DNA of 54,565 nt from an uncultured Candidatus Saccharibacteria bacterium (GCA_964357525.1 CAYHLH010000003.1:1298-55862); one strand, 5' to 3'; numbered from the stretch's first letter, positions 40,350 to 43,530 are shown. Made by a program: numbers and translations. The notes: generated by a model not told the origin, from the sequence alone.

Positions 40350-41138
40350 TCAAAAGAGGAGGATGAGCACTCCGACGAGCACGAGCCCGATGCCGGAAAA
40401 GAGTTTCATCCCGCCGGCGTTTTTCTTGCGCCATGCCTCCGCGCGGCCGATGAGCGCGGGACTCGAAGCGACTATGAGAGCGGCAAGGAGCGGCAAAACG
40501 AAGACGATGTTGTACCAGAGTAGATACCCGAACCCGCGGAGATACGCGGCGCTGTCGTGCAGAAGCCCCAGAATCGTGAGATACGGCCCGCCGGTGCACG
40601 GAAACTCGAAGAGCGCCACGAATCCTCCGAGGAGGAACGCGCTCGGAAGGGACCCTTTCTCGATGAAGCGGGCGATCTTGGGGTGAGCCGACTTCGGGAG
40701 CTTGAAGCGGATGGGGAATCCGGGGAAGAAATGCCCGATGAGCTCCGCAACGCCGAAGAAGATGACGAGCCATGCGGCGAGTTTTGAAACGAAATTCGGT
40801 ATGCCGAGGAACGTGAGCGCCTGGAGTATCCCCAATCCTATCAGAAGATAGGTGACGAAAATGCCGAATATGTACGCGCCTCCGGTAATGAGAATGAATT
40901 TTCTGGACCTCTGGAGCGATAACAGGAACGCGACCGTGAGAAGCAGGACCGAGAACGCGCAGGGATTGATGCTGTCCACGAGCGACGCAATGGTGACAAA
41001 AGGAAAGAAAAGGCCGCTTTCCGGCGTGATGCGCGTTCCAGAAAAATAATTTGAGAACGCCAGCTTCGCGCCAAAAAGAAGCAGGGCAAAAACCACGAAG
41101 ACAATTACAAGTTTAACGAGATCTTTCTTATTGCGCAT
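40350..41138 (-). CDS. CcdA/DsbD-like transmembrane electron transporter (cytochrome c biogenesis family)
   Basis: DSINPCAF and EFPCTGGPY Cys pair, YNxxFVLPL, multiple TMs. Confidence 0.85.
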   Translation of the reverse strand: MRNKKDLVKLVIVFVVFALLLFGAKLAFSNYFSGTRITPESGLFFPFVTIASLVDSINPCAFSVLLLTVAFLLSLQRSRKFILITGGAYIFGIFVTYLLIGLGILQALTFLGIPNFVSKLAAWLVIFFGVAELIGHFFPGFPIRFKLPKSAHPKIARFIEKGSLPSAFLLGGFVALFEFPCTGGPYLTILGLLHDSAAYLRGFGYLLWYNIVFVLPLLAALIVASSPALIGRAEAWRKKNAGGMKLFSGIGLVLVGVLILLF

Positions 41139-41226
41139 CCGTTTAGAATAGCAAAAATTTCCAATATGCGAAAACTTTCCCGCGCTGGCACGTTCGTAAA
41201 ACTCCAACGGTTTAACATAATTAAAC

Positions 41227-41255
41227 TTGACAAACCTTTTATTTTTCTGTAAAAA
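41227..41255 (+). promoter_or_regulatory. Near-consensus sigma70 promoter of the tas-array locus
   Basis: TTGACA (41227-41232) - 17 nt - TAAAAT (41250-41255). Confidence 0.75.
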
Positions 41256-41301
41256 TAAACCAGAATTTCAAATAAAATTAACATAAAAATATGGGGCGAA
41301 T

Positions 41302-42090
41302 ATGAAAAAAGAAGAAGTCCAGAGCGGACTGGAATCAAAATTAGGCACACTAGGCGCGCTCGTCGATTTTCAGCTACAACTTGAGAAAGCGATTACCGCG
41401 CTGAAAATCCGTAATACGCATTTAACCAAAAACGGTTCAGTCGACCCGCACACGAAGGAATTGTTACTCGAGTCAATAAAATTCAAGAGAGAGTTTCTCT
41501 TGAAACCAGTGAAGCGGCTTCTTGTAACGCACCCCGCATACCCGTGGTTCTCAAGGGTGAAGGGAATTGGAAATGAAAACATTTCTAAAGTCATCACGCT
41601 CATTGATATTGCGAAAGCTCCGACTATAAGTTCGTTGTGGAAATATGCAGGCTTCAGCGTGATTGAAGGAAAAGCTAATCGTCCTCAAAAAGGCAAAAAG
41701 CTCGACTTCAACAAGGAACTGAAGGTGATGTGCTGGCGGGTTGGCGTGGCGCTGATTAAGGCCAACCACCTGTCAAAAAACGGCACGAAATTCGGGCGCT
41801 TTTTCAAAAAGTATTTAGAAGAAGAAAAGGCAAAATTCGAAAGAGACGGCAAGAAGGTAATCCCGACGAAGGACTGGAAGAAAATCGCGAAAAACCCGGA
41901 ATCTTCCGAAGATTTCCGGAGTGAATATTACGTGCAGAACAGGGCTTTCAGGAGAATGATCAAACTTTTCCTCGGTTGTCTGTGGTTATTTTGGAGAAAA
42001 GCCGAGGGACTGGCGATACGCGATCCCTACCCCATCGAAAAAATGGGCCATACAACTTTGATTAAACCGGAAGAAATGATTGATAGATAA
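41302..42090 (+). CDS. Nop-domain / IS110-RNA-binding-domain protein without a nuclease domain (TasA-like TIGR-associated protein)
   Basis: Coiled-coil N-terminus, then HPAYPWFSRVKGIG...IDIAKAPTISSLWKYAG...R.KGKKLDFN..LK...WR.G..L...RAFRRMIKLFL..LW..WR..EGL....PY; no RuvC DEDD or HNH motif seen; directly followed by a 36-nt array. Confidence 0.85.
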   Translation: MKKEEVQSGLESKLGTLGALVDFQLQLEKAITALKIRNTHLTKNGSVDPHTKELLLESIKFKREFLLKPVKRLLVTHPAYPWFSRVKGIGNENISKVITLIDIAKAPTISSLWKYAGFSVIEGKANRPQKGKKLDFNKELKVMCWRVGVALIKANHLSKNGTKFGRFFKKYLEEEKAKFERDGKKVIPTKDWKKIAKNPESSEDFRSEYYVQNRAFRRMIKLFLGCLWLFWRKAEGLAIRDPYPIEKMGHTTLIKPEEMIDR

Positions 42091-42270
42091 AGCCATTTCA
42101 TACGAGAAAACCAAAAACGATAAGCGAGCCATCAATTTATAGAAAACCAGAGAATAAAAGCGAGCCATTCTTTCCAAGAAAACCAAGAAGTATAAGCGAG
42201 CCAATATATTCAAGAAAACCAATTGTCATAAGCGAGCCATGGTTGGCAAGAAAATCAGAATCAACAAGCG
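42091..42270 (+). ncRNA. TIGR-like tandem interspaced guide-RNA array: 5 x 36 nt (AGCCA-N9-AGAAAACCA-N9-AGCG)
   Basis: Units start at 42091, 42127, 42163, 42199 and 42235. Spacer pairs: TTTCATACG/AAAACGATA, TCAATTTAT/GAGAATAAA, TTCTTTCCA/AGAAGTATA, ATATATTCA/ATTGTCATA, TGGTTGGCA/GAATCAACA. Unit 5 loop is AGAAAATCA. Confidence 0.9.
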
Positions 42271-42271
42271 G

Positions 42272-42302
42272 GCCGCCACTTTAAAAAAGTGGCGGTTTTT
42301 TT
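42272..42302 (+). terminator. Intrinsic terminator closing the tas-array transcript
   Basis: GCCGCCACTTT-AAA-AAAGTGGCGGT-TTTTTT. Confidence 0.8.
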
Positions 42303-43530
42303 ATTTATTCTCCAATTTGGGCGTTTTCTCCGAAATCAAAAAATTACCGTCATTATTTCTTGAAAAGCTTTTTCCTTTCTGGATTTCCGTCCACGAAACT
42401 TCTTGAATGACCTCCCCCTTCGGATTCACGAAAAGCACGGCATTGTTGGAGTACGCGAGCGTGTTGGATTTCGCCCACGCGGCGTCGGGGGCGGGACCTC
42501 CGCGGTATCCTCCTTCGTTCGCGAGGAGAAGGAACCCTTTCGCGGGAACCGTTTTTCCCTCGAGACGCGATGCGGAAACGAGAGAGCTTACGGCACCGGT
42601 ACCGCTCCTCTTCTTCAGGGACCAGCCCGTGAGCGAAGCAGGCGCATCGCTCGGATTCCAAATCTCTATATACTCGTTATCCGAGGCGCCCTCCTCGCCC
42701 ACAAAGACCTCGTTGATGGCCACCGGCGAATACACCGAAACGGTCCCTTGAGAAACTGCCTCCACTTTGGGCCGTGAACTGTGAGCGTTGAATGGCAAAG
42801 GTTGAGGGGCGGGTGTTTTTTGATTTTTGGTTTCAAGTGAAATTCCCGATGAATTTTCCCCGCCCGGCGTTCCTCCGGAAATCGAGGAAGTTTGCCACTT
42901 GAGCGCGCCCGTGCGTTCCATCGTCCGTTTCGTTTCGTTGTCGCCAGCAGGCCACATACCCCTCGGAACCTCGTCAGCAAGTCCGCAATCTGCGGTGAAA
43001 AGCCGGAGGCCGGTGCCGGTATTCACGAGCGCGCCGTCGTAAGTGAGGTTGCCTGAAATTTTGCCCGACGCCTTCCGCACAAGAAGATTAAACCCGCCCG
43101 CGGGGAGCACCGTACCTTTTGGAATCGTTATTTTGATGCGTTCGTCTGCATTTATGATCTGCCAAAGGGAAATGTTCGCCTCGCGCCCCGAAACGTTCTT
43201 CAATTCCATCCATTCGGCGTTGTAATCCTCCTTCATTCCCATCCACGCGATCTCATTGAATATAACGGGACCGCCCGCCGGCGCCGAAGCCGACCCATAC
43301 ACACACGGATGGAAAGCCGGCCCCCCGCTTCGGGAGGCGAGGTCGACCTCCGCAATCGGTTCCTCGCGGGACAGAAACCCGCCCACAGCGGAAGAAAGGG
43401 AGGCGAGAAAACTATCCCCGCCGGAAAAACCTTTCCCAAAAATGAGAAACATCCCGAGAAAGAGCGCGAGAAAGGCGCCGAGCGCCGCGCCCGCAATTTT
43501 GAGCCCCTTCAAGATCGGGTTTGGGGGCAT
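42301..43530 (-). CDS. Membrane-anchored protein with two lamin-tail domains
   Basis: VIFNEIAWMG....EWMELKN and VAINEVF....NEYIEIWNP....SLTGWSL; N-terminal TM. Confidence 0.85.
   Translation of the reverse strand: MPPNPILKGLKIAGAALGAFLALFLGMFLIFGKGFSGGDSFLASLSSAVGGFLSREEPIAEVDLASRSGGPAFHPCVYGSASAPAGGPVIFNEIAWMGMKEDYNAEWMELKNVSGREANISLWQIINADERIKITIPKGTVLPAGGFNLLVRKASGKISGNLTYDGALVNTGTGLRLFTADCGLADEVPRGMWPAGDNETKRTMERTGALKWQTSSISGGTPGGENSSGISLETKNQKTPAPQPLPFNAHSSRPKVEAVSQGTVSVYSPVAINEVFVGEEGASDNEYIEIWNPSDAPASLTGWSLKKRSGTGAVSSLVSASRLEGKTVPAKGFLLLANEGGYRGGPAPDAAWAKSNTLAYSNNAVLFVNPKGEVIQEVSWTEIQKGKSFSRNNDGNFLISEKTPKLENK

Follow-up and report, generated by a model that had tools for sequence, protein, structure and literature searches.

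A dual-repeat TIGR-TasA locus whose rebuilt targets have no close match in its own nearly complete genome

Dual-repeat TIGR-TasA systems, exemplified by FpTIGR of Flavonifractor plautii (Faure et al. 2025, PMC12045711), are described as a solo Nop-domain Tas protein followed downstream by an array of edge and loop repeats with a 36-nt period. In that account the spacers are preceded by CCA, the array begins with a truncated first edge repeat at the tas stop codon and finishes with a truncated terminal edge repeat and a terminator, and systems of this kind occur in Candidate Phyla Radiation genomes. The published interval scheme allots 3 nt to box C, 9 nt to the spacer, 2 nt to box D and 4 nt to the gap (bioRxiv 10.64898/2026.09.09.750476), and both papers describe boxes that diverge, with edge and loop repeats changing in concert. 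Tas proteins with a missing or dead nuclease (MbTasA, CsTasR and PateTasR; Xu et al. 2026, the same preprint) bind DNA under the guidance of a tigRNA, and repression by stem-loop TasA and dead TasR in E. coli is reported there to be sequence-specific and reversible. The idea that TasA acts as a natural CRISPRi-like repressor was thus raised in 2025 (PMC12045711) and shown in principle in 2026 (bioRxiv 10.64898/2026.09.09.750476), and both papers acknowledge the natural targets and role of nuclease-less TIGR-TasA as an open question.

The outcome proposed for TasA, an RNA-guided steric block without cleavage, is the same as that of dCas9 CRISPRi and of non-cutting CRISPR systems (type IV and type V-M), although the proteins are unrelated. 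CRISPR systems use one contiguous guide that reads one strand in a PAM-dependent manner, and their spacers are acquired by Cas1-Cas2; we know of no adaptation module in TIGR systems. A Nop-type RNA-binding domain is also common to box C/D sRNPs (Nop5) and the IS110/IS621 bridge-RNA recombinases. Unlike these, the system described below has no fibrillarin or L7Ae partner and no recombinase domain, would read double-stranded DNA, and carries its guides in an array.

The locus lies in a stretch of 54,565 nucleotides (the window) from an uncultured Candidatus Saccharibacteria bacterium (GCA_964357525.1 CAYHLH010000003.1:1298-55862), the host being a small groundwater Patescibacteria-like genome. 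It shares the features listed above for FpTIGR and consists of the following elements, with positions counted from the first letter of the window.

41227..41256, plus strand: candidate sigma-70-like promoter upstream of tasA (TTGACA, 18 nt, TG-AAAAAT), called purely by consensus match at 10 of 12 positions.
41302..42090, plus strand: tasA, a 262-aa ORF for a Nop-domain TIGR-associated protein without a nuclease domain, assigned by phmmer, a family profile, and AF2 with Foldseek.
42091..42126, plus strand: TIGR unit 1, with the truncated edge repeat AGCCA (42091-42095), spacer A (42096-42104), loop repeat (42105-42113) and spacer B (42114-42122), then the start of the next edge repeat, AGCG.
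42127..42162, plus strand: TIGR unit 2, with spacer A (42132-42140), loop repeat (42141-42149) and spacer B (42150-42158); the sole unit without ATG in the 18-mer formed by spacer B and the reverse complement of spacer A.
42163..42198, plus strand: TIGR unit 3, with spacer A (42168-42176), loop repeat (42177-42185) and spacer B (42186-42194); ATG at the junction of that 18-mer.
42199..42234, plus strand: TIGR unit 4, with spacer A (42204-42212), loop repeat (42213-42221) and spacer B (42222-42230); junction ATG.
42235..42270, plus strand: TIGR unit 5, with spacer A (42240-42248), a degenerate loop repeat (42249-42257, TCA in place of CCA), spacer B (42258-42266) and a 3'-truncated edge repeat, AGCG; junction ATG.
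42270..42308, plus strand: intrinsic terminator closing the array, an inverted repeat with a 13-pair stem (6 G-C pairs), a 3-nt loop and a T-rich tail.

The tasA product was compared with known proteins by sequence and by predicted structure. No Pfam family matched it at E <= 1. A phmmer search of the PDB returned TaTasR (9mty, E 5.5e-18) and SpTasH (21kl, E 2.5e-11), and a profile of 64 homologues recovered TasR at E 3.4e-34 and TasH at E 1.6e-23, aligning solely to TasR residues 137-320 and TasH residues 71-304, that is, downstream of their nuclease domains. About 56 residues of TasA precede the conserved region, and the AlphaFold (AF2) model, with a pLDDT of 92.4, folds them mostly into a first long helix (residues 10-43). 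When this model was submitted to Foldseek, the top ten matches were all TasH or TasR cryo-EM chains (TM 0.65-0.71), followed by the IS621 recombinase. TaTasR (9mty) and SpTasH (21kl, 9w04) thus have the same Nop/coiled-coil fold and likewise use tandem spacers that read both DNA strands, but they carry RuvC or HNH and cut DNA, and the identity of the window protein to solved Tas structures over the fold is just 18-23%. Because it has 262 residues, is homologous to TasR and TasH from a point after their nuclease domains, begins with a helix in the model and draws a blank in Pfam, the protein is on sequence grounds a nuclease-less Tas protein of the TasA type. The original prediction had called it nuclease-dead, and phmmer, the profile and the model agree that RuvC and HNH are missing. 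Its reading frame is intact, with every invariant family residue present. Among the 64 homologues H250 is invariant and Y243 is conserved in at least 90%, and alignment places both in the Y...H stretch at the C-terminal end of TasH and in its TasR counterpart. A C-terminal Tyr/His pair is presented, without residue numbers, as the tigRNA-processing dyad of dual-repeat systems (bioRxiv 10.64898/2026.09.09.750476), so Y243 and H250 are the probable counterparts of that dyad, their catalytic role being taken from the preprint. In this the window protein differs from MbTasA, CsTasR and PateTasR, which the preprint describes as stem-loop TIGR proteins without the Tyr/His loop and with engineered targets; the window system is of the dual-repeat kind and keeps the loop.

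Positions 42091-42270 hold five head-to-tail 36-nt units, and the period of 36 holds over all five. Within a unit the order is edge repeat AGCGAGCCA, 9-nt spacer A, loop repeat AGAAAACCA and 9-nt spacer B. The first edge repeat is truncated at its 5' end and adjoins the tasA stop codon, where the array begins, and the last is truncated at its 3' end and runs into the terminator hairpin with its T tail. Box C reads CCA before the spacer at nine of ten positions, the exception being the TCA of the unit 5 loop repeat, so that four of five units have canonical boxes. The arrangement fits the published intervals (box C 3, spacer 9, box D 2 and gap 4 nt), but box D is AG rather than UG and follows a conserved purine (R-A-G); the array is also short for a dual-repeat system, at five units. 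The edge gap is CGAG, whose end C and G are able to pair, and the loop gap is AAAA. An Rfam search gave nothing above threshold and one sub-threshold chance match, on the terminator. Upstream of tasA, a TG precedes the second hexamer of the candidate promoter, which sits in an intergenic stretch of 23% GC (41208-41301). The same array architecture stands next to tas in 21 of 23 related loci. The locus is, in short, a canonical dual-repeat TIGR-TasA system and an ordinary member of the known TIGR-Tas family.

Array contigs from sequencing runs of two studies, dated 2021 and 2025, were identical. One run, X2, additionally yielded a 69-nt contig with two changes, 42247 C>T (unit 5 spacer A position 8), by which the ATG is lost, and 42255 T>C, by which CCA is regained; this is a strain-level variant of the unit 5 guide at low depth (3.5 of 6.9). 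The same run held a 151-nt contig that matches the array at 42159-42204 with six differences and then continues into unlike sequence, probably a second, related TIGR array belonging to another organism in the same groundwater sample.

The original prediction had joined spacer B to the reverse complement of spacer A (B+rcA) and read the result as the target of each unit. The ten 9-nt spacers and five 18-mers were recovered exactly as written, and a recount agreed that ATG occurs in four of the five 18-mers and at the junction in three. The opposite-strand geometry also held up against the published 8-nt 3' overhang and 'C-5 rule'. The ends made by TasR are described as 3' overhangs of 8 nt, with the cut on the 5' side of the base that pairs with guide base five, counted from box C (PMC12045711); of the two possible joins, B+rcA (equivalent to A+rcB) alone gives a 3' overhang, and one of exactly 8 nt, which is why we take B+rcA to be right. 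This argument is a derivation of our own from the text of that paper. In every one of the five units the B+rcA strand is rich in A, and the variable spacer positions have a GC content of 29%, compared with 54% for the host genome.

Much of the junction motif can be traced to the ninth base of each spacer. From 23 related loci fetched from genome contigs, 21 of which have arrays, we kept 204 units other than those of the window, leaving out mis-registered, non-9-nt and duplicate units. In this set position 9 of spacer A is A in 35%, G in 60%, C in 1% and T in 4%, and position 9 of spacer B is A in 34%, G in 63%, C in 0% and T in 2%, so that it is a purine in 95% and 97% of units, respectively. 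The four arrays nearest to that of the window (63-64% protein identity) have 26 units between them, with A at this position in 85% and 88% and a pyrimidine in none. The A-side and B-side bases moreover covary by array (Spearman 0.88 across 18 arrays with at least four units, with an overstated P value because the arrays are kin), and such covariation between edge and loop sides is, in the published work, what marks the bases that the symmetric Tas dimer reads. Since the base is a near-invariant purine that covaries between the two sides, the ninth 'spacer' base in this clade is part of the repeat, a purine dictated by the protein, with a free guide of 8+8 nt. This free length differs from the dual-repeat description and equals that of SpTIGR, which is likewise reported to have 16 variable guide nucleotides (PMC12045711).

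The central A|T of the 18-mers follows because position 9 of both spacers is a conserved base, and the G that completes a junction ATG comes from a C at position 8 of spacer A. The caveat attached to the original prediction, that the terminal bases might be extended repeat conservation, was accordingly borne out for the terminal A, which is the conserved purine, but not for the preceding C, which is found at position 8 of spacer A in just 19% of related units. In the window it is present in three of three units with A at position 9 and in four of five overall. Two spacer A's of the array break the purine rule, among them that of unit 2, with a terminal T that is rare in the family (4%). In shuffles that keep position 9 in place the mean number of junction ATGs was 0.63, which makes the observed count unusual (P = 0.007), for a pattern that was picked out post hoc.

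We then asked how far the resemblance to translation starts extends. In a start-context weight matrix built from 2,169 unambiguous starts, four of five window 18-mers score at least 2 bits, compared with 0.93 in shuffles (P = 0.0015); at a threshold of 1 bit P = 0.026, and at 3 bits none of the five qualifies. The original prediction had suggested repeating the comparison across other TasA arrays, and there the pattern does not recur: a junction ATG is present in 6 of the 204 related units against 6.2 expected, and a Shine-Dalgarno-like motif together with ATG in 5 against 3.3 expected. ATG at any position was found in 59 units on the B+rcA strand (49.6 expected, P = 0.05) and in 56 on the opposite strand (48.7 expected, P = 0.13), and the 2-bit threshold of the matrix was reached by 4 units on the top strand and 6 on the bottom (2.2 and 2.7 expected). 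The junction ATG and the start-likeness are thus specific to the window array and are not properties of the family. Its outlier status counts against the explanation favored below, which treats it as small-sample chance combined with composition.

On the strength of this resemblance the original prediction had proposed that TasA represses the organism's own, possibly leaderless, genes at start codons or transcription starts. Besides the ATGs (in four 18-mers, at the junction in three) and the matrix scores in four of five, two observations favor such a role: the weakness of the Shine-Dalgarno signal in the host, and the reported repression of a reporter and of a chromosomal E. coli gene by programmed TasA (bioRxiv 10.64898/2026.09.09.750476). 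The first comes from the first starts of 641 long ORFs of the genome, a crude set with spurious frames, in which a Shine-Dalgarno-like signal rises only weakly between -12 and -7; the organism may make little use of ribosome-binding sites. Against leaderless starts, tasA itself has a leader of about 45 nt downstream of its candidate promoter.

The guides were compared with the host genome itself (630,906 bp in 19 contigs, 96.73% complete). It holds no match at 0-1 mismatch of 18 to B+rcA, rcA+B (= rcB+A), A+B, B+A or neighbor-unit joins, in a search that is blind to partial self-sites if TasA tolerates several mismatches. The best match is a single site with two mismatches, in a rival geometry. 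TasR tolerates gaps of 1-2 bp. With the center left free (8+N(0-4)+8 forms), the genome contains no exact match over 16, near-matches are equally common in control geometries, and the one-mismatch-of-16 matches are purine-rich, low-complexity sequences that fit unit 3. The near-matches with one to three mismatches fall inside genes or at gene ends, and none at a gene start. Looser pairing has been described for TasR, one cut site of which pairs with only six of nine bases of spacer A (PMC12045711).

The same holds for two relatives with many guides. No exact self-match in any geometry was found for the 40 units of one (G061, 466 kb rebuilt from fetched stretches) or the 41 units of the other (G062, 706 kb fetched, contigs to C43), which makes 81 guides without one. 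Furthermore, tasA is present in 2 of 61 related genomes with the host included, and absent from a genome of the same genus; it is missing from 59 of the 60 others and therefore is not a conserved regulator. With no own-genome site for the window guides and no self-match for those of its relatives, silencing of the organism's own genes at start codons is close to refuted, and we find it scarcely credible.

Matches outside the host were sought among public sequences. The exact 18-mers of units 1 to 5 occur 12, 1, 7, 1 and 5 times in viral contigs; in genome contigs unit 1 has 29 matches and unit 5 has 25, and in metagenome contigs unit 1 has 39. These numbers are at about chance level, and the matches are spread over unrelated taxa and habitats. 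Short TIGR spacers are noted to give many false matches (bioRxiv 10.64898/2026.09.09.750476), and the 16-base pattern of unit 3 with a free center matched at least 117 stretches of viral contigs. The original prediction had pointed to phages, plasmids and candidate host genomes, but none of the public loci fetched carries a second unit at 0-1 mismatch.

These chance copies do, however, allow the start-like character of the 18-mers to be measured. An ATG was called a gene start when no other in-frame start preceded it in an ORF of 90 codons or more. By this definition the ATG lies at a gene start in 6 of 19 distinct viral contexts (two being copies of one gene), in 8 of 29 genome-contig copies of unit 1 and 3 of 25 of unit 5, and in 9 of 30 distinct metagenome contexts of unit 1, several of them homologous; for unit 4 the count is 0 of 3, and unit 2 lacks an ATG. 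Among control ATGs the proportion is 2.6% for any ATG in the same viral loci and 3.7-7.5% for ATGs matched for offset, GC and A content, but the matching does not extend to features tied to a position, ATGAAA for example, and this inflates the excess. The translation-start look of the rebuilt targets is therefore measurable for units 1, 3 and 5, although it is no evidence of a target and owes most to a conserved repeat base combined with AT-rich guides.

The guides might nonetheless be directed at an AT-rich foreign element, at the translation-start regions or 5' ends of its genes, as a natural form of CRISPRi-like silencing. The rate at which chance copies of units 1, 3 and 5 fall at gene starts (12-32%, against the 3.7-7.5% of matched ATGs with their overstated contrast), the C at position 8 in all three units with A at position 9 and the A-rich B+rcA strand of all five units would be in keeping with such a use, and TasA repression, as published, works by a steric block at the 5' ends of genes. 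On the other hand, the pattern was spotted post hoc among five units, does not recur in the 204 related units (whether judged by junction ATG, by Shine-Dalgarno motif plus ATG or by matrix), is lost in the natural unit 5 variant, and no contig holds two of the targets. We regard this reading as quite improbable. A more particular version, in which the array is a specialized guide set against 5' regions of an AT-rich groundwater mobile element and the fixed central A|T would favor ATG-centered sites, strikes us as highly doubtful. As for the repressor idea as such, the mode has been demonstrated for TasA with an E. coli reporter (bioRxiv 10.64898/2026.09.09.750476), but start-codon targeting is unsupported by the window array.

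The genomic setting offers a different view of the guides. Across 41000-42350 the GC content is 0.36-0.46, as opposed to 0.54-0.63 in the flanks, which suggests that tasA and its array form a low-GC island of about 1.3 kb and a horizontally acquired accessory module. A comparison of gene order with the same-genus genome gave no clean insertion boundary: the corresponding interval has no tasA but differs beyond tasA as well. Taken together, the patchy occurrence of tasA, the low-GC island, the 29% GC of the variable spacer positions and the unchanged array argue that this is an accessory module with guides unlike host DNA.

Bins that contain TasA proteins of this clade (L001-L023) are labeled as Patescibacteria lineages, Dehalococcoidales, 'Gammaproteobacteria', Cloacimonadota, Clostridiales and Aenigmatarchaeota, a spread that points either to a widely mobile module or to errors in binning. 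Several of these loci have very large or multiple arrays (L022, at ~48.3-50.2 kb of contig C17 in G061; L012, on C2 of G062; L023; and L002), one of them with 40 units and another with 41, the latter spread over both strands in at least five blocks. Some units within related arrays are near-duplicates that differ at 0-2 of the 16 variable bases, and in L002 the same first unit is repeated upstream and downstream of tasA. TIGR arrays seem to grow by unit duplication, which bears on the origin of spacers. Between loci, 21 unit pairs differ at no more than 5 of 16 bases, compared with 10.6 +/- 3.1 in shuffles; window unit 2, for example, differs from a unit of L021 at 4 of 16 variable bases and has similar guides in L012 and L013. 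Position-specific composition or shared unit ancestry is the likely source of this similarity. Within units, the purine contents of spacers A and B covary weakly and negatively within arrays (209 units, P = 0.03, a marginal value), and their GC contents do not covary. Halves copied from opposite strands of a single site would be expected to show a negative covariance, and the purine result fits this.

Duplication also enters into the possibility that the guides are orphaned or decaying, inherited with the island after their targets had gone, so that their composition reflects drift and unit duplication rather than selection. The array has five units only, box C of its last loop repeat is degenerate, two of its spacer A's break the position-9 purine rule, related arrays show internal duplication in their near-duplicate units, the sequence was unchanged between the 2021 and 2025 samples, and the searches turned up no targets. 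Yet the tasA frame is intact with all invariant residues, the candidate promoter and the terminator are intact, four of five units are canonical, and the strain variant regains a canonical box C. Decay is in our judgment unlikely. A further proposal is that TasA and its tigRNA work by bending or positioning DNA, in integration, partition or replication control of the element, rather than by repression. The published speculation to this effect cites a ~180 degree bend of the target and occasional ParB-like neighbors of tasA (PMC12045711). Directly beside tasA in the window, however, no integrase, ParB or mobile-element ORF is evident; the neighboring ORFs look like housekeeping genes, one of them thioredoxin-like (names read from translations alone), and repression is the sole TasA activity shown so far. 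A role in DNA bending is to our minds a very long shot.

The explanation that we favor, and consider probable if far from assured, is that of an acquired TIGR-TasA locus in which position 9 belongs to the repeat and the targets are on foreign DNA. By analogy with the published family, tasA and the array would be co-transcribed from the upstream candidate promoter, and the conserved Tyr/His loop at the C terminus of TasA would process the precursor into 36-nt tigRNAs. Loaded with one tigRNA, a TasA dimer would then open about 16-18 bp of DNA, with spacer B pairing to one strand and spacer A to the other, and the target center would either be fixed as R|Y or be left unpaired. The bound complex would not cut, but would block transcription or replication at the site. 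The targets most likely lie outside the host's own chromosome, on AT-rich foreign DNA (a phage, plasmid or rival element) beyond the collections searched; we infer them from the absence of self-sites rather than from any observed match.

As a further example of its family the locus adds little to the catalog, but its nearly complete genome allows a clean negative. The five window guides and the 81 of its two relatives have no matching site on their own chromosomes, which argues against self-regulation and for foreign targets. Full-text literature, supplements aside, contains no report that we could find of natural start-codon targeting or of a target rule for TIGR; targeting of start regions, if true, would give TIGR systems their first natural target rule. 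In any case, anyone rebuilding targets in this clade must allow for position 9, as spurious central motifs such as ATG will otherwise appear.
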